A DNA stretch of 12,531 bases from Chthonomonadales bacterium (lineage in GTDB: Bacteria > Armatimonadota > Chthonomonadetes > Chthonomonadales > Chthonomonadaceae): assembly GCA_038217285.1 (NCBI GenBank), contig JBBQPO010000182.1, positions 1-12,531 of the forward strand. Direction: 5' to 3'. The position numbers and the translations under genes are program-made. Positions 3,836 to 12,386 of this stretch are shown here, piece by piece. How positions within the stretch are numbered: the stretch's first letter is position 1; each line of letters begins with the position of its first letter. The notes beneath the pieces were generated by a model that saw nothing but the letters and a program-made list of their open reading frames with translations, had not been told where the DNA came from and made no database searches.

Positions 3836-4912
3836 TCAGACTCGGACTGTGGGACGCCGCCATCTTGCCTGGGCTCCCAATAACAATACCAGAAGGATCG
3901 CCAGACCCACAAGAAAATGCCAGGGGAACGGCGCCGGGGGAGAGGTTGTCGTATACCTCTCCTCGAAGATTCTTTTGCCATGAGCGCCGATCGAGTATCG
4001 TGTGAGCGTGGCGCTGTCGTACAAAATCTATCCCTTGGACATCGTCGCATCGAAGCGGCTATCCGGAACGTTGTTCACCTCATACGAAATGTCCTTGTAG
4101 TCAACCTTGGATTGGAATGCGTCACTTCCGTCCGTACGCCTGACGGTTTCGATTGAGCAGACGCCAGGCATCCATATACCACCCACCTTGACGGCGCTCA
4201 GACATCGAAGGGTTTCGACGATACTGGTGTTTGCCTTGTTGGGAAACGGATAGGATAACTCTGTGCGAACCGACATGTAGTTGTATTTGGGCGCGATCCA
4301 GAACCGGATCGTACTATTGTTGTCACTCCGGCAGGTCAGAATCGACAGCAGCCCGAACTTAGGATCCTGCGCGGTGCCGACAAGGGATCCATGCCCGGCT
4401 TTCAGCGCGGTCGCTATCCACATGCCGTTGACGAGATAACCGCAGTCAAGCGGCGATAGGAAGTTTATGTGGGGCGCAGTCTGGACATCATCGCGGTGAT
4501 AGCCGGTACGTACAGCCGTTCCGGTCGATTCAAAATGGTGTTCCTCTTTTCCATCAAATATTCGGATCGCTGCTCGATGGTGTTTGGCATCGGCTTTCTG
4601 GTAAGCGTTCTGCTTGGTGACATCCTTTGTATCGGTCACTTGCTCATAGTATTTTGGCCCCTTGAAGGCCCACTTCACATCCGTTACAGTCTGCAAACCG
4701 TAGTCTGATGGAGCCTCTATCATAGTTGCATAGCTCCCGGACATGGCATGGACGTCGGTGTACTTGGCAGAGACGGAGCGCAGTTGGCCAGGATGTGCCT
4801 CAAGCCCGCGCAGGAGCGTAGCGTAATCGGGAGCCCTGCCTTGCGCCTGACCGAAATCGGGCAGTACGATCCCAACAAGAATGAAACAGAAGTAGAGGTG
4901 TGGTAATCGCAT
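3836..4912 (-). pseudogene. Secreted hypothetical protein with a C-terminal TM anchor, interrupted by in-frame TAG at 4028-4030 (294-aa product if terminated there)
   Basis: AGGAG RBS + ATG 4912, signal-peptide-like MRLPHLYFCFILVGIVLPDFGQAQ; ORFs 4028..4960 and 3836..4024 share a frame: ...FDATMSKG*ILYDSATLTRY...FPWHFLVGLAILLVLLLGAQARWRRPTVRV. Confidence 0.65.
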
Positions 4913-5427: not shown

Positions 5428-7209
5428 TCAATTTTCACTCTCTATGGGTAGGAAGATCCGGAACTGCGCGCCTTGCCCGGGCTCTCCGGTCTCCCGAATT
5501 TTGCCGTGATGCGCGTCCACAATCCCCTTCACGATGGAAAGGCCGAGGCCCATTCCCTTGACGCGGGAGGAGAAGAACGGCGTAAAGATCTTCTCTTTAA
5601 GCTCCGCCGGAACCCCCGGCCCGGAATCGGCGAAGGTGATCTGAAGGTAGGCGCGGGAGGGAGAGAGCCGAACGAATGCTGGCCCCTCGCCCGGTGCGAC
5701 CTGGACCACTCCGACGGTCAACGTGCCGCCCTCCGGCATGAAACTCACGGCGTTCTCGATCAGCTCCGCGAAGGCTCGTTTCAGCTTCTCCCCGTCGCAG
5801 CGCAGTGCAGGCAGACCGGGCGCATACGCTGCGACCAACTTTACCGGACTGCGCTTCGGGAAAGTCTCGGAGACAGTCTCCTGCACCAGAGCCGCGATGT
5901 CGGTGGGGCGCAGCGTCAACTGGGTCGCCATCACGAAGTCGCGGAACTCCCGCAGAATATCTTCCAGCCGATAGACGCCGCGCTCGATGCTCTCTACCAG
6001 CGCGCCCACCTCCTGATTCATATTCAGGTGCGCCAGCGCCTGCGGGTCCGTACACTGCGCGAGCAGGTATTTCAACTCGTTCAGGTCGCCCTTGATCGCG
6101 AAGGTGCGATTGCCGATCATATGCGCCGACTTCGCCGAAAGCTCGCCCCACGCCGCCATCCGCTCGGAACGCACGACACGGTTGAAATTTCGGATGTTGT
6201 CTACCGCGATGCCTACCTGTCCGGCAATGGTCGTCAGCACCCGCTCGTCGCTTTCGGTGAAGCGCGCGCGGAACCAGGCAGGCGTGGCCCGCGGGCGGGA
6301 GACCCGCAGCACGCCCAGCGTCCGCTCCCGGCCTAGGATCGGCACCGCCAGAAACGCGCTGCGCTCGTCCCGCGAAAACTCCGGGTAACGGCCCAGCCAG
6401 CGCGGATCGTCCCGAGGATCGTCCAGGCGAATCGTCTGCCCTGTCAGCCCGACGGTTCCAGTCAGCCCCTCGCCGAGTTTATAGAAGGCCGTCCCGACAT
6501 CTGCCAGAAGGTAGCCGCGCGTCGCCTGCAAGACCAGGGTCTCCCGCGTCTCGTCGAGCAGAAACAGGGAACAGCCCTCACAGCGCAGGGCTTCCGCCGC
6601 CACCTCCACGACCCGGCGGGCCAGCGGCTTGATCTCGGAGGTCGCGGCCAGGTCGCGCCCGATCTGCACCAGCAGGCGCTCCCGGCTGCGATACTCTTCA
6701 AAGGCGAGGGCGGCAGCAATGGCGTTTGCGAAGGTGGTCAGCCAGTCCAGATGCTCCCGGCGAAAGTGGTTCAGCGCCTCGCTGTCCACATGCAACACAC
6801 CGCTGACCCGGCCTTCGGCATCGAAGAACGGCGCGGCGATCTCACTGCGCACCTCGGCGAAAAACTGCACATAGTGCGGGTCTACGCGGACATCGGGGCA
6901 GAGATAGGGCTTTCCCGTTATCGCGACATATCCGGTGATGCCGCGCTGCGTCTCGTTGTGCGGCTGCAAGCGGATACGCTCTATCTCTTCGGTCCACCCT
7001 TCGCCCGCCGTCTCCACCACGGCCAGCTCGCCCGTCTCCTGCACCACCCGTGCCAGAAAGGCGCGCTTGCCTCCCGTCAGCCGCACGGCGTCCTGCAGAG
7101 TCTCGTGCAGAAAGTCGCGGGAGGCGTGCTGGGTCAGCGACAGGCTCAACAGACAGTTGGCGACGGTCAGAAAATCAGCGGGGGCAGGCAGCGGGGTCTC
7201 GTCCGGCAT
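5428..7209 (-). CDS. Soluble sensor histidine kinase, GAF-GAF-HisKA-HATPase
   Basis: Two GAF-type segments (GITGYVAITGKP..DVRVDPHY..RSEIAAP; LGEGLTGTVGLTG..DDPRW..AFLAVPI..GVLRV); H box SAHMIGN, N box ELIENA, G1 DSGPG, F box IFTPFFS, G2 GMGLGL; no clear TM helix. Confidence 0.95.
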   Translation of the reverse strand: MPDETPLPAPADFLTVANCLLSLSLTQHASRDFLHETLQDAVRLTGGKRAFLARVVQETGELAVVETAGEGWTEEIERIRLQPHNETQRGITGYVAITGKPYLCPDVRVDPHYVQFFAEVRSEIAAPFFDAEGRVSGVLHVDSEALNHFRREHLDWLTTFANAIAAALAFEEYRSRERLLVQIGRDLAATSEIKPLARRVVEVAAEALRCEGCSLFLLDETRETLVLQATRGYLLADVGTAFYKLGEGLTGTVGLTGQTIRLDDPRDDPRWLGRYPEFSRDERSAFLAVPILGRERTLGVLRVSRPRATPAWFRARFTESDERVLTTIAGQVGIAVDNIRNFNRVVRSERMAAWGELSAKSAHMIGNRTFAIKGDLNELKYLLAQCTDPQALAHLNMNQEVGALVESIERGVYRLEDILREFRDFVMATQLTLRPTDIAALVQETVSETFPKRSPVKLVAAYAPGLPALRCDGEKLKRAFAELIENAVSFMPEGGTLTVGVVQVAPGEGPAFVRLSPSRAYLQITFADSGPGVPAELKEKIFTPFFSSRVKGMGLGLSIVKGIVDAHHGKIRETGEPGQGAQFRIFLPIESEN

Positions 7210-7676: not shown

Positions 7677-9479
7677 ATGAAAAACACTATTTTTCTGCCT
7701 GCGGTCCTCGGACTTCTGGCCTGCACCGCCGCCTGTTCCGCCACTCCCCCCGATGTCGCGCGTGATCTGAGCGCAGGCGTAGGAGCGCAGGGGCGGCTCA
7801 TGTGGATCGACGGCACCGCCAACATCACCCGCACCCTGAAACAGGGCGATCAGAAGATCGTCGTGGACTACACGACGACTCGGGCGGGCGTTCAAGAGAT
7901 CGTGCGGAAATGCCGCGCCGCGCACGTCAACACCATCGTCGTGGATGTCAAGCCGCTGGCAGGGTTGGTGCTCTACAACAGCAAGATCGCGCCGCGCATG
8001 CGAATGTGGCAGGGCCATCCCCTGCCCGATTTCGATGTGCTGGCAGCGTTCGTTGAGGAGGGGCATAAAGCAGGGCTGCAGGTAGACGCGTCGATCAATG
8101 TGCTGAGCGAAGGTCATAAGTACTACAGTGTCGGCCCTGCCTACCAGCATCCCGAGTGGCAGAGCGTGGTCTACACCGTTGATCGCGGTATGGTCGCGCT
8201 GAACGAGTCGCGCCTCTCCGTGCGCGCGCCGGACGAGCCCGACGACCCGGCCAAGCCGGTGCTGCTGGCCGACGACAGCACCGTTCTCGGGGCCAGCGGC
8301 ACCAACGGCCTGGTCGGTCTGGAGAGCAAGGAGAACAGCGGCGGCGTGGACAGCGCCGTCCCGCTGGGCAAGCAGATCAATATCGTGCTGGACCCGGCCA
8401 ATCGCGTGGCCGGTATGGTGGACAGTGCCCTGCTGGGGGACGACTCGCTCGCCGCGCCCGAAAACGGCCATCTCGTGAGCGTCTCGCGGCCTGCGGACCG
8501 CGAATGGGCCGCGAAGAATCTGCGCATCGGCTCGGCGGTGCGCTTCGATCTGCGCACGGGCCGCACCCTGATCGCGCAGGCTCCCAGCGAGCGCGTGGCC
8601 TGCTTCATCAACCCCTTGCATCCGGAAGCGCGCCGCTACGAGTTGGAGATGGCGCGCGAGATCGTCGCCAACTACGCTATCGACGGCCTCGTCCTGGATC
8701 GGTGCCGCTTCAGTAACATCCACAACGATTTCAGCGACCGCACCCGTGACGCCTTCGCGCAGTGGCTCCAGCGGCAGCCGCGCGCCTCTCGCCGGGGCGG
8801 TAGCTTCCCCACGGTCATCAATCAGTGGCCGCAGGACATCTTCGCGTTTCCCGAGACTCCCGGCGGCGCCATCAAGCGCGGGCCGCTCTACAAGCCCTGG
8901 ATGGAGTTCCGCGCTCAGACCATCCGCGATTTCGTCGCCGAACTGGCGCGTACCGTGCGGGCCGTCAAGCCGCAGATCGTGCTCGGAACCTATGTCGGCT
9001 CCTGGTACCCTGGCTACTACGAAGTGGGCGTGAACTGGGGCAGCCCCAAGAACGGCCTGCGCTACTCCTGGTATACGCCCAACTATCCCCGCACCGGCTA
9101 CGCGCAGTTTTTCGACTGGATCTCCACCGGGTGCTACTATCCGAATGCGATGGAAGACGAGGCCCGCCTGCAGGGCCAAAATCCGCAGGCGACCGTGGAG
9201 TTCGCGGCAGCGCTCTCCAACCAGGCCGTGGCCAGCGGCGCGTTTGTCTACGCCGGTATCTATCTGCAGGACTATACCCATCGCCCCGAAGCCTTCCTGC
9301 GCGCCCTCGAAGCCTGCACCCAGCGCAGTCAGGGGTGGATGATCTTCGATCTCTCGCTTATGGACGAACAGAACCTGTGGCCCTACCTGGAAAAGGCCTA
9401 TCCGGCTGCGGCGGTCGCGCCTCATACGCTGCCGGGCCTGCTGCCTGCGGCTCGCTCGGGTTTTGACAGCGCGGAATAG
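7677..9479 (+). CDS. Secreted glycoside hydrolase-like protein (GHL10/DUF187, YddW/DigH-related; possibly a lipoprotein)
   Basis: Signal peptide containing Cys (LLACTAAC); motifs LMWID, VNTIVVDVKP, DVLAAFVEEGHKAGLQV, FINPLHPEAR, EIVANYAIDGLVLDRCRF, WMEFRAQTIRDFV, GTYVGSWYPGYYEVGVNW. Confidence 0.85.
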   Translation: MKNTIFLPAVLGLLACTAACSATPPDVARDLSAGVGAQGRLMWIDGTANITRTLKQGDQKIVVDYTTTRAGVQEIVRKCRAAHVNTIVVDVKPLAGLVLYNSKIAPRMRMWQGHPLPDFDVLAAFVEEGHKAGLQVDASINVLSEGHKYYSVGPAYQHPEWQSVVYTVDRGMVALNESRLSVRAPDEPDDPAKPVLLADDSTVLGASGTNGLVGLESKENSGGVDSAVPLGKQINIVLDPANRVAGMVDSALLGDDSLAAPENGHLVSVSRPADREWAAKNLRIGSAVRFDLRTGRTLIAQAPSERVACFINPLHPEARRYELEMAREIVANYAIDGLVLDRCRFSNIHNDFSDRTRDAFAQWLQRQPRASRRGGSFPTVINQWPQDIFAFPETPGGAIKRGPLYKPWMEFRAQTIRDFVAELARTVRAVKPQIVLGTYVGSWYPGYYEVGVNWGSPKNGLRYSWYTPNYPRTGYAQFFDWISTGCYYPNAMEDEARLQGQNPQATVEFAAALSNQAVASGAFVYAGIYLQDYTHRPEAFLRALEACTQRSQGWMIFDLSLMDEQNLWPYLEKAYPAAAVAPHTLPGLLPAARSGFDSAE

Positions 9480-9498
9480 CCTGACCGCACTTCAGACT

Positions 9499-9516
9499 TT
9501 GTGAATGCGATCACAA
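9499..9516. promoter_or_regulatory. CRP-family / Rex-type operator palindrome
   Basis: TTGTGAATGCGATCACAA: an exact TGTGA-N6-TCACA, and one mismatch from the Rex consensus TTGTGAA-N4-TTCACAA. Confidence 0.7.
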
Positions 9517-9539
9517 TCAAAAATATTTGCACAGAACGC

Positions 9540-9568
9540 TTGACAAACCCGCACAAGTGCGATATAAT
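9540..9568 (+). promoter_or_regulatory. Perfect consensus sigma70 promoter
   Basis: TTGACA (9540-9545), 17 bp spacer, TATAAT (9563-9568), with AT-rich sequence upstream. Confidence 0.9.
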
Positions 9569-9672
9569 GAAATTGCACAGAGGGAAGCATCCTGTTCCCC
9601 TTTCACTCCAACTGTTTTCGGTGCCTAAGGGAGTGAAGAAGCAAAAAAAACTTCACAGGAGGGTTACCGCGT

Positions 9673-9732
9673 ATGCGATATCGAAATGATTTCGGGACGA
9701 GGTTCACTTACTGGAAAGGACGCGAAGGATGA
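9673..9732 (+). CDS. Candidate 19-aa peptide MRYRNDFGTRFTYWKGREG
   Basis: AGGAGG (9657-9662) 10 nt before ATG 9673, TGA at 9730-9732; below the ORF-track size cutoff. Confidence 0.4.
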   Translation: MRYRNDFGTRFTYWKGREG

Positions 9733-9891
9733 CGCCACCGGACTGCAGTAGTTGAGGCTTTAGCACGACAGACCGCGAACTAAAGTCGCGAGAACCAGCG
9801 CAAACGGCGACCAACGGAAGCCGTACGCGTAGGGGAACGCGAAACATCATGCGCGACAATACAGCGCCCACAAGTTTCGCCCTGTCCTGAC

Positions 9892-9930
9892 ATAAGAAGC
9901 GCCGCCCCAAAACGGAAGGCTTTTTATTAT
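9892..9930 (+). terminator. Terminator-like hairpin ending the + strand small transcript
   Basis: ataagaagc (9892-9900) pairs with gctttttat (9919-9927), inner ccg/cgg, U-rich 3' side; the stem is imperfect. Confidence 0.5.
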
Positions 9931-9960
9931 AGCCTCGATCTCGGAAAACCACCGGGATAC

Positions 9961-10000
9961 AAAATTGGCCCTCCTGATCTCAATGCGATCAGGAGGGTTT
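9961..10000. terminator. Intrinsic terminator of the ECF operon (possibly bidirectional)
   Basis: Perfect 11-bp stem ccctcctgatc (9969-9979) / gatcaggaggg (9987-9997); followed by ccaatttt on minus and ttt on plus; 29 bp past the 10026 stop. Confidence 0.75.
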
Positions 10001-10025
10001 CCTGTTGCCAGGGCAGAGAGCGCCG

Positions 10026-11012
10026 TCAGTTGCCGGGTTTGATTTCCGCCTTGCCCTCTGGCTTAACGAGAGTCCGCAGGGACGGTCTTGCCCAGGTCCA
10101 GGAAGGAGATCCGAGTTTGACTTCCGCCTTGCCCTCTGGCTTGACGCTCTTGCCGCAGATCGGGCAGAACTGCCAGTCGATGCCGGCCGTCGCGGGCCGC
10201 TTCGCACCGTCGAAGGGGCAGAACTGCCAGTCGTCATGGAACACGCGGCCGCACTGGTCGCATTTCGGGGACTGATGCTGGTGGATCACCGTAACCTGCT
10301 GCTTACAGTGCGGGCAGGTAAAGGTCGAGCGCACCTCGGCAACCTTGTTTGTCTGGATTAGCGTGTTCGCGAGGGTGTACGTGGCCGACAGGTTTGTCGC
10401 GTTGTCGGGCGCAAACTTCAGACCCGCCATCGGCTTGAAATTCTTGTCCTGCCCTTTCAAGTCATAAAATTTGTTTCCGTTCTCATTGTAACGGAGATAA
10501 GGAGTCAGCCAGGATAGGGGACTGTCCCACTGAAAGAGGCTACGGGACACTTTTTTGCCGATGTGAAAGACGGTGGTGGCCTCCTTGCCATCGGATTTGC
10601 GGCCCTTCTGTTGGTTCCAGTTCAGTCCGGTGGCGTCCGACACCATTTCGAGGGCAGTCGAGAGACGAATGTTTTTCGCGACGACCGTGACCCTGGCGTC
10701 TGCGGGCACATCGCTCTCCAGCACGAACTCCTGCTTCGTCTGGTCCTTTAGCTGCCGGATCGCCTCCTTCAGAGGCGCGTTACGCAGATCGAGATTGACG
10801 CGCATCTTCGATTGCGCCGAAACCACGTAGGCGACGTTGGGCAGATACTGAGCCGTATAGTCAGACGTTTGGTCGCCAGTTAACACGTCCAGTGGCGCGA
10901 GGTAGTTATACGCGGCCTTGGTGGGCGTATCGGACTGAGGTTTGGTGGCAACTTCCTGGGCGGATGCCACGCAGGGCAGCAGCAGGGTGGCAAGAATCGT
11001 GCGGAACTTCAT
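10026..11012 (-). CDS. Secreted protein with an STN-like (secretin/TonB short N-terminal) domain and a C-terminal Cys-rich zinc-ribbon region
   Basis: Signal peptide MKFRTILATLLLPCVASAQ; VNLDLRNAPLKEAIRQL...VTVVAKNIRLSTALEMVSDATGLNW is STN/secretin-N-like; CPHC, CDQC, CPFD, CPIC; AGGAGG RBS; ATGA overlap with the upstream stop (11009-11012). Confidence 0.85.
   Translation of the reverse strand: MKFRTILATLLLPCVASAQEVATKPQSDTPTKAAYNYLAPLDVLTGDQTSDYTAQYLPNVAYVVSAQSKMRVNLDLRNAPLKEAIRQLKDQTKQEFVLESDVPADARVTVVAKNIRLSTALEMVSDATGLNWNQQKGRKSDGKEATTVFHIGKKVSRSLFQWDSPLSWLTPYLRYNENGNKFYDLKGQDKNFKPMAGLKFAPDNATNLSATYTLANTLIQTNKVAEVRSTFTCPHCKQQVTVIHQHQSPKCDQCGRVFHDDWQFCPFDGAKRPATAGIDWQFCPICGKSVKPEGKAEVKLGSPSWTWARPSLRTLVKPEGKAEIKPGN
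10037..10146. repeat. Intragenic 32-bp direct repeat (VKPEGKAE[V/I]K twice)
   Basis: gtttgatttccgccttgccctctggcttaacg (10037-10068) vs gtttgacttccgccttgccctctggcttgacg (10115-10146), 30 of 32 identical, 78-bp period. Confidence 0.9.
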
Positions 11013-11722
11013 GGTCTTATATCCTCCTGTTCGAAGCGTACCGGAATAAGGGTCGCGGCTATATGGGCCTCGGCCGGGTTCGAGGCGTCGTCGGGCTGCA
11101 GTGTGAGTTGGAAGAGCGCCGGGGCCAGCAGGATGGCGGCAGTCTCGGGATCACGCTGAGCGATCCACACCGGGGTCGCCGTCTGCGTGATGACCTCGCA
11201 ATGCACCGTTTCTGTCTTCCATATTCCATTTGACCGCCTCGTTGTTGTCGGCAAAGGGTTGTTTCGCGCCAAAAGGCGTCGGTGCGGATGTTGCGGATAG
11301 TGACGGGCGACATGCCGTCGATGTCGCCATGGCAAGATAGGTACCTTGACCAGGCCCGAACCTGCAGGCGGCAGGATCGCCCGGACCATATCCCTGGGTC
11401 GGGGCGCTGACGTGTCCGGCAAGAGGGGCTTGTTGGAAGGATGGACAGCCGTTATCGGATCGGGTGCGACGCCGGTCTTAAGAGGGCGATGCGGCGAGCG
11501 CAGCCAGAGCGAGACGCCCAGCAGCAGCGCCAGACCACAGGCTGAGGCGACAAGGCGAGGCAACAGAAGGGATCGACGGCAGGAAAGCCCCTGTCGCGCC
11601 AGCGCTCCGACGACGAGACTGTCCGGGGCGACCGTATCAGATTCGTAACGGGCGGCCTCCTGCAGTGCGGCTTCGACAAAGCCTGTGCTATTCGGCGCCT
11701 TCGGTTCGGAAGGGATCTTCAT
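11009..11722 (-). CDS. Single-pass membrane protein, putative anti-sigma factor
   Basis: Directly downstream of the ECF sigma with an ATGA overlap (11719-11722); short N-terminal domain, TM LVASACGLALLLGVSLWL, Pro/Arg/His-rich linker, short beta-rich C-terminus. Function is inferred from synteny. Confidence 0.75.
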   Translation of the reverse strand: MKIPSEPKAPNSTGFVEAALQEAARYESDTVAPDSLVVGALARQGLSCRRSLLLPRLVASACGLALLLGVSLWLRSPHRPLKTGVAPDPITAVHPSNKPLLPDTSAPRPRDMVRAILPPAGSGLVKVPILPWRHRRHVARHYPQHPHRRLLARNNPLPTTTRRSNGIWKTETVHCEVITQTATPVWIAQRDPETAAILLAPALFQLTLQPDDASNPAEAHIAATLIPVRFEQEDIRP

Positions 11723-12324
11723 AACGTCCACCCTTTGGCCTCTATTTCGATCCGGCCGGAACTTTCCAGGTCGTCGATTTGCAGGTCTTTCAGCTCATGG
11801 GCCAGTCGGCGCATTCCGGCCTGCACCCGGCTGCGCACAGTGCTTTCCGCCGTACACTCCAGTCGCGCCACCTCCGCCAGCGAAAACTCCTCGAAGAAAT
11901 GCAGCCAGATCGGCACCCGCTGCGGTGTGGGCAGCGCGGCGACCGCCTGCCGAACGCGTCGTTGGGCGGCGCGGCGCTCGGCAAGTCGCTCCAGCGACTC
12001 GGAAGCGGTGGTATCCGGCGGTGTGTCGGTCTGCCAGAAGCGAATGCGCCGCTTCCAGGCCGACTTCTGGTAGTCATGCGCGGTGTTCAGGGCGATACGA
12101 CAGAGCCACGCCTCGAAAGACGCTTCGGCCCGGTAGGTGCGCACCGCGCACCAGGCCCGGACGATGGCCTCCTGCGTCAGATCCTCTCGATCCGGCCCCG
12201 GCGCCACGGAACTGACGATTCGCCAGAGACGGTTTCGACTCCGTTCGCACAGCGTCGAGAACGCCTCCTGATCGCCTGCCATTGCCCGCGCGGCCAGTTC
12301 TTTTTCCGCATCCGCAGCGCTCAC
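11719..12324 (-). CDS. ECF-family RNA polymerase sigma-70 factor
   Basis: GDQEAFSTL, region 2 EDLTQEAIVRAW...FEAWLCRIALN, region 4 FSLAEVARLECTAESTVRSRV; likely GTG start at 12324 after GGAGG/GGAG (the ORF track uses TTG 12363). Confidence 0.95.
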   Translation of the reverse strand: MSAADAEKELAARAMAGDQEAFSTLCERSRNRLWRIVSSVAPGPDREDLTQEAIVRAWCAVRTYRAEASFEAWLCRIALNTAHDYQKSAWKRRIRFWQTDTPPDTTASESLERLAERRAAQRRVRQAVAALPTPQRVPIWLHFFEEFSLAEVARLECTAESTVRSRVQAGMRRLAHELKDLQIDDLESSGRIEIEAKGWTL

Positions 12325-12386
12325 GTCTCCGCCTCCAACCCTTAGACGATACAGACCCTGCAAAACCGCGAACCCGGCGTCTCCAT

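Follow-up and report, generated by a model that had tools for sequence, protein, structure and literature searches.

A probable new RNA family of the Chthonomonadaceae with a conserved MTPPD mini-ORF: a candidate orphan, translation-gated riboregulator

The window analyzed here is a 12,531-nt stretch of DNA from a Chthonomonadales bacterium (contig JBBQPO010000182.1 of assembly GCA_038217285.1). Between two protein-coding genes it contains an orphan transcription unit on the + strand, with a predicted transcript of about 430 nt (9575-10005). The unit has a sigma-70 type promoter, TTGACA-N17-TATAAT, at 9540-9568 on the + strand. The promoter matches the consensus at 12/12 positions, as an earlier sequence-only reading of the window had claimed, and a consensus scan found no other promoter-like site on either strand of 9000-10500. 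An A+T-rich tract (9517-9528) lies upstream of it. The -35 hexamer is invariant and the -10 hexamer reads TA(T/C)AAT in the five genus-level sequences, and in other genera the homologous loci carry near-consensus promoters of their own at the corresponding position. The start at 9575 is placed 7 nt past the -10 hexamer, and the 3' end is placed by the U-rich tail that follows a hairpin at 9969-9997. This gives the unit a length of about 430 nt rather than the ~350 nt first proposed, and an end about 75 nt beyond position 9930, where that reading had stopped. No + strand open reading frame (ORF) of at least 30 aa begins downstream of the promoter, which agrees with the claim that a long ORF is absent; that reading overlooked two tiny ORFs, at 9673-9732 and 9729-9755. 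The unit is also densely folded, as proposed. Positions 9574-10005 fold at -148 kcal/mol, compared with -126 +/- 6 kcal/mol for shuffled sequences (z = -3.6), and 0/100 shuffles were as good. The RNA was assigned to the + strand because of the promoter direction, the A-rich skew (AT skew +0.39 over 9700-9899) and the G-U pairs of the conserved helices; read on the opposite strand, these pairs would become A-C mismatches.

From 5' to 3', the predicted layout of the RNA is two leader hairpins, a long hairpin with a first ORF (ORF1), a second Shine-Dalgarno sequence with a second ORF (ORF2), a domain of about 180 nt and a terminator. The most conserved element is ORF2 (9729-9755, + strand), which reads AUG ACG CCA CCG GAC UGC AGU AGU UGA and would encode MTPPDCSS. 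The second Shine-Dalgarno sequence (GGAAAGGA; 9713-9720, + strand) places a GGA 8-9 nt before the AUG in 22/22 sequences. Homologues have GGAAAGGA, GAAGGAG or AAAGGAGAGGAG at this site, and the spacer between the GGA and the second AUG varies freely. The predicted duplex with the anti-Shine-Dalgarno tail has an energy of -5.4 to -10.0 kcal/mol, compared with a mean of -2.7 kcal/mol for 803 background windows drawn from the same RNAs, 13% of which are at -6 kcal/mol or below. The sequence AUG ACG CCA CCN GAY (MTPPD) is present in all 22 of the sequences compared. The only variable sites in this core are the wobble positions of Pro4 (G/U) and Asp5 (C/U), and both changes are synonymous. A pattern search allowing three mismatches found no true copy that was changed inside AUGACGCCACC. 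The codon CCA is the rarest proline codon of the genome (11.6% in 1987 long ORFs), yet it is invariant in ORF2. The MTPPD codons are followed by 3-9 free codons, for a total length of 8-14 codons. ORF2 stops at the UGA of UGAGGC or up to 7 codons beyond that position; in 22/22 sequences the stop is inside the GAGGC-type strand that closes the 3' domain or no more than 18 nt past it. Judged from the aligned homologues, the most conserved 40 nt, which had resembled an RNA motif, appear to resolve into a translation start, consisting of a ribosome-binding site and a mini-ORF, and it is likely that ORF2 is translated. The sequence-only reading had proposed either a new small RNA (sRNA) or a dual-function RNA. 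The proposal is supported, and the dual-function option is preferred, since conservation is highest at a ribosome-binding site and its mini-ORF. Pairing of the core with the leader loops was also considered and was rejected, as there is no consistent covariation.

In the genomes and metagenomes searched, the RNA is restricted to a single family. BLAST found the region in 4/4 other genomes of the same genus at 73-83% identity and a 46-nt core in one other genus as well, so that 6/41 genomes matched with the source genome included. With as many as 3 mismatches allowed, a 23-nt core pattern matched 12/68 genomes of the order, compared with 1/68 for the reversed control; the match in G064 (locus L011) was dropped because it is coding sequence. 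A degenerate core pattern matched 10 stretches in a collection with one genome for each of 185,579 species, every one of which comes from a record titled Chthonomonadaceae (8) or Chthonomonadales (2). The same pattern matched 6 metagenome contigs, one of which (L032) was dropped as coding. A covariance model of the 5' hairpin and core (R1) matched 24/68 genomes at E<=0.01. Each weak R1 match was inspected, and those in G017, G044, G030, G047 and G031, together with a second match in G022, were rejected as coding-like and missing the core. Homologues were kept for 19/42 genomes (the source genome counted) and 10/23 genera, all from the family titled Chthonomonadaceae. No credible copy was seen in the order's two remaining families (26 genomes), although absence from incomplete genomes does not prove absence. 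G007, the one single-contig genome of the family, matched neither the 23-nt pattern nor R1. The covariation analyses used sets of 9 and 17 distinct sequences. Both the conservation in the 4/4 same-genus genomes and the compensatory changes in the helices described below speak for the RNA proposed by the sequence-only reading.

The RNA does not belong to a known family. Searching the whole window with Rfam 15 gave 0 matches at the gathering threshold and chance-level matches at E<=10, the best of which (19.9 bits, to rdlD) is on the terminator hairpin alone. At E<=1, no Rfam match falls on the RNA in 14 homologous loci. The tmRNA (RF00023) and RNase P RNA (RF00010) of the same genome are on contigs C52 (144 bits) and C288 (274 bits), and a 6S-like match (RF00013, 44.9 bits) is on contig C75. 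Both tmRNA and RNase P RNA are present in 5/5 genomes tested, all at other loci, and 6S matches above the cut-off occur in 2/5 related genomes, again at other loci. The identities 6S, tmRNA and RNase P RNA were therefore rejected, which for tmRNA and RNase P RNA confirms what the sequence-only reading had stated. A literature search that covered few subscription journals found no description of a regulatory RNA from Armatimonadota, nor of MTPPD; the phylum has few cultured members. It is very probable that the RNA is a new, lineage-restricted, expressed RNA family, and its claimed novelty is upheld at the locus and at the 14 homologous loci. The flanks of two homologous loci contain T-box leaders (L063:185-416, minus strand, and L031:1121-1413, minus strand) with 92.8 and 87.6 bits against a gathering score of 93; these have no relation to the RNA.

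Contigs from RNA libraries suggest that the RNA is expressed. A run search returned 20 runs with parts of the stretch, of which 6 are RNA libraries, and contigs from four RNA runs in three studies were mapped to 9200-10300 at >=85% likeness. The peak depths on the RNA in the 4/4 metatranscriptome runs mapped are 457, 83, 2816 and 50. An ice metatranscriptome has a 318-nt contig with a word depth of 457 on 9586-9867 and an 82-nt contig with a depth of 432 on 9876-9906 that continues 51 nt further; in this run, contigs of the flanking genes reach 3.7, 6.3 and 3.8. In a second ice run, 9585-9867 is covered by a 283-nt contig at a depth of 83. The soil run has 26 contig pieces with a summed depth of up to 2816 at the conserved core, and the biocrust run has 4 contig pieces on the RNA. 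Together the contigs cover 9585-9906 and then about 50 nt more. The stretches 9459-9569 and 9940-10124 have no RNA-contig cover, which does not mark the ends of the transcript. One soil contig has letters directly before 9575 that we take to be an Illumina adapter end, followed by GGG. This would fit a template-switch copy of the RNA 5' end and is a weak hint of the start. The sequence-only reading had described an abundant stand-alone RNA. The stand-alone part holds, since the unit has its own promoter and terminator; high abundance is hinted at by relatives' contigs that are about a hundredfold deeper than the flanks, in the one run where the flanking genes are covered. The carriers of the RNA are soil and ice bacteria of one family.

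The 5' part of the RNA begins with two leader hairpins, GGGAA/UUCCC and CUUUCACUCC/GGGAGUGAAG (9582-9638, + strand), which are kept within the genus only. The stretch AGGGAAGCAUCC.GUUCCCCUUUC is invariant save one position in 5/5 genus-level sequences, and the second leader hairpin has compensatory changes at alignment columns 71/108, 74/105 and 75/104. These are followed by a long imperfect hairpin (9652-9717, + strand), which was seen in minimum-energy folds and in the covariance-model alignment. The 5' strand of the long hairpin holds the first Shine-Dalgarno sequence, AGGAGG (9657-9662), and the 3' strand terminates in CUGGAA directly before the second one. Single-sequence minimum-energy folds gave a single long hairpin from about 6 nt before GGAGG to UGGAA in 12/12 lineages, with z-scores of -0.85 to -6.4 (-1.8 or lower in 9/12). 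The partner of the GGAGG purine strand is a CCU/CUU stretch immediately before UGGAA, and the inner-helix pairs change by genus (CCACG/CGUGG, CCGCG/CGAGG, CAUG/CAUG and GAUG/CAUC). In a model-fitted alignment, which is biased towards its model, 92.4% of cells are paired compared with 35-64% in slid controls, and 3 pairs are changed on both sides compared with 1-2. RNAalifold on the all-genera MAFFT alignment found just 4 pairs for this hairpin because the arms are not aligned; therefore, single-sequence folds and the covariance model were used. The strand 9700-9717 has two predicted alternative partners, the 5' strand or 9743-9759. By hand inspection, only CUG/CAG of these predicted pairings is kept across genera.

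ORF1 (9673-9732, + strand) has 19 codons and would encode MRYRNDFGTRFTYWKGREG. Its UGA overlaps the AUG of ORF2 (AUGA). In 7/7 genus-level sequences ORF1 has equal length and no indels, yet it has many amino-acid changes, and within one genus the peptide is poorly conserved (MRYRNDFGTRFTYWKGREG versus MNVHRDFNTWYAHWKGREG). An ORF1-like frame of 10-19 codons starts 7-14 nt past GGAGG in most lineages, and in 18/22 sequences its stop is a UGA that either overlaps the second AUG or precedes that AUG by 9 nt. Selenocysteine insertion or read-through at the ORF1 UGA was rejected, as the following frame is not conserved on hand reading. The 5' arm of the terminator, 9969-9976 (CCCUCCUG), exactly complements the first Shine-Dalgarno stretch, 9656-9663 (CAGGAGGG), and by eye the terminators of about 8/12 lineages have a CCCUC(C) 5' arm. 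This could be a long-range 5'-3' pairing or merely a local style of terminator.

The 3' domain is a multibranch structure of about 180 nt (9754-9936, + strand) with an invariant closing helix, GAGGCU (9754-59) with AGCCUC (9931-36). Inside it on the + strand are the helix GACAG/CUGUC (9767-71 and 9882-86), the hairpin CGCGA/UCGCG (9774-90) and the helix GCGAAAC/GUUUCGC (9839-45 and 9874-80), which encloses the conserved hairpin GCGC-GACAAUACA-GCGC (9851-67, + strand). These helices had been named by the sequence-only reading, and all are kept in relatives, some with compensatory changes. A further helix, ACGGC/GCCGU (9804-9824), is present in this genome as described; the segment is variable in relatives. 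A + strand hairpin at about 9895-9926, first taken for a terminator-like hairpin, is an internal hairpin within the closing helix; it has no U tract in G002 and G004, and the consensus scan places no + strand terminator there. RNAalifold on nine sequences (eight genus-level and one more distant metagenome copy) recovered the closing helix, a second helix, GACAG/CUGUC, CGCGA/UCGCG, and GCGAA/UUCGC enclosing a GCGCG-loop-CGCGC. Over 30 pairs of the domain, 94.4% of cells are paired compared with 91.2 +/- 0.5% in shuffles and 30-51% in slid controls. Six pairs are changed on both sides, compared with 2.5 +/- 1.0 in shuffles (0/500 reach 6) and 0-3 in slid controls. The alignment of the domain has gaps of 1 and 4 nt, and indels that are not multiples of 3 leave no protein frame on either strand of the domain. 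An 82-aa minus-strand ORF (9704-9952) was ruled out on this ground, as was a possible third ORF starting at AUGCGCGAC, the AUG of which is also missing in other genera.

One element of the 3' domain that persists across genera is a hairpin of 4-6 bp with a loop starting AC(G/A) and the consensus GCGCG-ACGAUAC-CGCGC, which is 93-134 nt past the second AUG in 18/22 sequences. Its stem reads GAGUG/CACUC or AAGUG/CACUU in another genus, and CGAAAC often precedes it. By eye, most lineages have a GAGGC...GCCUC closing pair. A hammerhead-like reading (GAUGAG...CGAAAC) was rejected because core letters differ and GAUGAG is missing in this genus, and a pseudoknot between UUACG and the loop of the conserved hairpin was rejected because it fits one genus only. 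The closest relatives have a 13-codon frame (9851-9889 in the window) that starts from an AUG at the conserved hairpin and reads MRDNTAPTSFALS here and MRDDTAPIKFALS in G003. The frame is taken as incidental, since the AUG is absent in other genera and has no good Shine-Dalgarno sequence. Downstream of the domain, an 11-bp G+C-rich hairpin (9969-9997) is the likely terminator and would serve both convergent units. The consensus scan assigns it to the minus strand, and UUUCCUGUU comes after it on the + strand. The hairpin is kept in relatives with compensatory changes (columns 257-289), and every homologue read has a G+C-rich hairpin and U-rich tail about 200-330 nt past the second AUG.

In its layout the RNA is most like a tandem leader-ORF attenuator, but it fails the defining feature of that class, as the RNA ends in a terminator and is followed by a convergent gene. 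It was not filed as a leader attenuator because a regulated downstream gene is missing. It does appear to have the leader peptide of such a system, a short ORF with a ribosome-binding site and speed-signal codons, in the Shine-Dalgarno sequence, AUG and Thr-Pro-Pro-Asp of 22/22 sequences. With its own promoter and terminator, and with RNA-library contigs that stay within its limits, it is an independent unit and fits the loose class of dual-function sRNAs. The Salmonella mgtCBR (mgtM/mgtP) and mgtA (mgtL) leaders reportedly have proline-codon ORFs that sense EF-P or proline. The RNA resembles them in having short ORFs within a long structured RNA and consecutive proline codons as a speed signal, and in that translation is expected to select between stem-loops. 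However, mgtCBR and mgtA have 5' leaders that control transcription into downstream genes, while the present RNA has a structured part past the ORFs, and the peptide sequences are unrelated. The rhizobial rnTrpL/peTrpL is said to be an attenuator-derived sRNA of about 110 nt with Trp sensor codons and known links to trp genes. It shares with the RNA the form of a leader-peptide attenuator that is a separate small RNA encoding a tiny peptide; the RNA described here is unlike it in its length of about 430 nt, its Pro-Pro-Asp codons, its large 3' domain and the absence of a visible pathway link.

Dual-function and large orphan RNAs offer further comparisons. SgrS/SgrT, RNAIII/hld and SR1/SR1P are likewise stand-alone promoter-terminator units with a small ORF and a conserved structured part. 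Those RNAs have ORFs of 26-43 codons that encode conserved peptides, and their RNA parts pair with known targets. In contrast, the RNA of the window conserves 5 codons only, with a polyproline-type motif, and has a large 3' domain. It is also like OLE, raiA, ROOL and GOLLD, which are lineage-restricted orphan RNAs of several hundred nt with many helices and are often very abundant; however, it has no Rfam 15 match, and those RNAs are not defined by a conserved ribosome-binding site and mini-ORF.

The reading that we favor, tentatively and with somewhat less than even confidence, is that of a dual-function RNA working as an orphan, translation-gated riboregulator, with the layout of a leader-peptide switch and no following gene. 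In an E. coli ribosome profiling study (PMC4140641), PPD is reported only among the PPX motifs that pause ribosomes in the absence of EF-P. A pause-gated mechanism is possible, though it is somewhat less secure than the general reading. Ribosomes on ORF1 would open the long hairpin and then re-initiate at ORF2, where Pro-Pro-Asp would cause a pause unless the supply of EF-P and prolyl-tRNA is sufficient. With Pro4 in the P site, the ribosome would extend to about codon 8-9, at the foot of the closing helix. A paused ribosome would thus halt just short of the closing helix, and one that reaches the stop codon would melt it. Translation capacity would in this way be converted to a folded or unfolded 3' domain, and probably to the lifetime of the domain, which may be the part that acts in trans on a partner. 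ORF translation, pausing, the structural switch and the activity in trans are the parts of this model that we infer. A more specific proposal, that the RNA is a free-standing sensor of translation capacity in which MTPPD arrest reports the sufficiency of EF-P and prolyl-tRNA or a peptidyl-transferase drug and gates a trans-acting 180-nt domain, is speculative and somewhat doubtful.

Such a layout separates the leader-peptide sensor from the controlled gene, which are normally found together. If the mini-ORF does gate the 3' domain, ribosome-pausing switches can feed trans-acting RNAs, and the leader-peptide switch would be an input module for an sRNA and would naturally report the capacity for polyproline translation. 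Should the mechanism prove wrong, the RNA would still represent a new family with a defined promoter, ends, structure and a 15-nt invariant coding core.

Several observations weigh against the translation-gated reading. The wobble-only pattern in the core consists of two variable sites, which would both be third positions by chance with a probability of about 0.1. In ACG and CCA the wobble base is invariant; therefore, an RNA-level or codon-specific constraint also acts on the core. The invariance of the core is partly a matter of ascertainment, as the search patterns and model were centered on the core and the extraction expression demanded the exact core. In full-length folds, the mean predicted unpaired values of the second Shine-Dalgarno sequence and second AUG are 0.41 and 0.53, which are unremarkable compared with 0.40 overall. 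ORF1 is absent or different in 4/22 sequences (G061, G022, G018 and G019). The model of the 3' domain (R2), which was built from one genus and one metagenome copy, could not align other genera and scores 16 bits or less in them; therefore, the supposed effector domain evolves fast. Finally, the RNA contigs stem from relatives (the best has 32 differences in 282 nt), assembled contigs give neither strand, ends nor true levels, and the flank contigs are possibly from other organisms.

The chief rivals are a pure-RNA reading of the core and a peptide-product reading. If the RNA is purely non-coding, the ORFs are incidental and GGA...AUGACGCCACCGGAY is a single-stranded site for a protein, another RNA or a tertiary contact, and the RNA would act through its structure alone. 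This would agree with the invariant ACG and CCA wobble bases despite the rarity of CCA, with the freedom of ORF2 past codon 5, with ORF1 peptides that are unconserved and lacking in 4/22 sequences, and with the strong structure and covariation. However, an invariant GGA set 8-9 nt from an invariant AUG by a free spacer has the look of a ribosome-binding site and not of a contiguous motif. The core also varies at synonymous third positions alone, the ORF1 stops cluster at the second AUG, and hand inspection found no covarying partner sequence for the core. A purely non-coding RNA is unlikely. If the RNA is instead an mRNA, its product would be the 8-14-residue MTPPD... peptide, perhaps with the ORF1 peptide, and the 3' domain would be a stabilizing or localizing 3' untranslated region. 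The strong promoter, the two Shine-Dalgarno sequences and the invariant N-terminal pentapeptide would suit an mRNA, as would codons 6-7, which in some clades change synonymously only (UGC/UGU and AGU/AGC). Against this, only 5 residues are conserved, and the length and C-terminus of the peptide vary from genus to genus and inside genera, as between G062 and G061, among G055, G056 and G019, and between G006 and G064. A gene for modification, export or reception of a peptide is never a constant neighbor, and a 180-nt domain with a conserved hairpin exceeds the usual needs of a stabilizer. A peptide product is improbable.

Two other readings are very unlikely. The RNA could be an orphan drug sensor, in which a small molecule such as a peptidyl-transferase antibiotic induces the pause at MTPPD, as in the cat and erm leader ORFs. 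Short drug-sensing leader ORFs reportedly have a similar pattern of five conserved nascent residues followed by free sequence, the carriers live in soil, and a divergent RlmN/Cfr-like radical SAM gene adjoins the RNA in G002 and G004. However, there is no resistance gene downstream, and the RlmN-like gene is divergent, is found in 2 lineages only and is probably a housekeeping gene. Moreover, according to PMC4140641, Pro-Pro-Asp pauses ribosomes without a drug. It is just as improbable that the RNA titrates CsrA in the manner of CsrB/RsmZ through GGA motifs that include AAGGAUGA. CsrA (PF02599) is above the cut-off in 5/5 genomes tested, and AAGGAUG and CAGGAGG resemble the CsrA consensus; however, G000, the source genome, has 14 GGA in 450 nt compared with 10.1 +/- 2.4 expected, 12 homologues have 7-16 compared with 5.6-11.4 expected (1.2- to 1.8-fold), and the conserved parts reach far beyond the GGA loops. 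Such a GGA excess is too small for a CsrA sponge, and this reading was rejected.

Also largely refuted is the reading that the RNA is a leader or attenuator acting in cis on a downstream gene, or a divergent 6S, tmRNA, RNase P RNA or T-box. The two-ORF layout is leader-like, and a few lineages (G062 and M31 among them) have a same-strand ORF beyond the terminator. However, the next gene in the window (10026-11012) is convergent with the RNA, as the sequence-only reading had stated in arguing that the RNA is not a 5' leader. It is likewise convergent in at least 8 lineages (this window, G002, G004, G055, G019, G066, G006/G064 and G021), every homologue read has a terminator, and the neighbors differ among genera. 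The known families are contradicted by the lack of Rfam matches and by the tmRNA, RNase P RNA and 6S-like RNA located elsewhere. A type I toxin-antitoxin mRNA, which would pair a hydrophobic 20-60-aa toxin with an antisense RNA, was rejected, as the peptides, at 8-19 aa, are short and either polar or aromatic, and 9000-10500 has no minus-strand promoter-like site.

The promoter of the RNA may be regulated. The operator palindrome reported by the sequence-only reading, TGTGA-N6-TCACA (TGTGAATGCGATCACA), is present at 9500-9515, with its center about 67 nt upstream of the predicted transcript start. It is the sole exact match in the window, where 0.24 matches are expected by chance and 44/200 shuffles have at least one. 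The pattern is presumably that of CRP/FNR-type half-sites. It is kept in G000, G001, G003 and the metagenome copies M33 and M34, and is missing in G002 and G004. The 6.2-Mb source genome has 11 TGTGA-N6-TCACA sites compared with 1 for the reversed control, and one of them (C2:5370-5385) is just upstream of the ORF with the best CRP-type helix-turn-helix match (C2:5903-6118). This site fits an autoregulated factor of the CRP/FNR family, and the set of sites suggests a small CRP/FNR-type regulon that would include the promoter of the RNA, to which such a factor may bind.

No constant partner gene was found in the neighborhoods of the RNA across lineages. A divergent DtxR-family repressor adjoins the RNA in G006 and G021, which represent two genera. 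In both (L051:1993-2655 and L058:1840-2517, respectively) it is a metal-dependent repressor of the DtxR/MntR family with a FeoA domain, located upstream of the RNA, which is a weak hint of a link to metals. In G056 the contig C56 (L021) has two near-identical copies of the RNA on the minus strand (2263-2654 and 4392-4783), separated by 2.1 kb that contains unannotated ORFs. A convergent gene for a large serine recombinase (Resolvase, Recombinase and Zn_ribbon_recom domains; L021:736-2388) adjoins the lower copy, and the doubling may be a duplication linked to a mobile element.

In the window itself, the upstream neighbor of the RNA (7677-9479, plus strand) encodes a lipoprotein-like, glycoside-hydrolase-like protein with GHL10/DUF4985 domains. 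A gene of this kind is also upstream of the RNA in three other lineages (M31, G062 and G061). The convergent minus-strand cluster at 10026-12363 encodes a secreted 328-aa protein with weak FecR_C/STN and zinc-ribbon matches (10026-11012), a 240-aa protein without a Pfam match (11009-11731) and an ECF sigma factor (11719-12363), which look like a module of sigma factor, anti-sigma factor and sensor. Further from the RNA, the minus strand encodes a GAF-domain histidine kinase (5428-7209) and a PSCyt1/PSCyt2/PSD1 (DUF1549/DUF1553) protein (1-2151).

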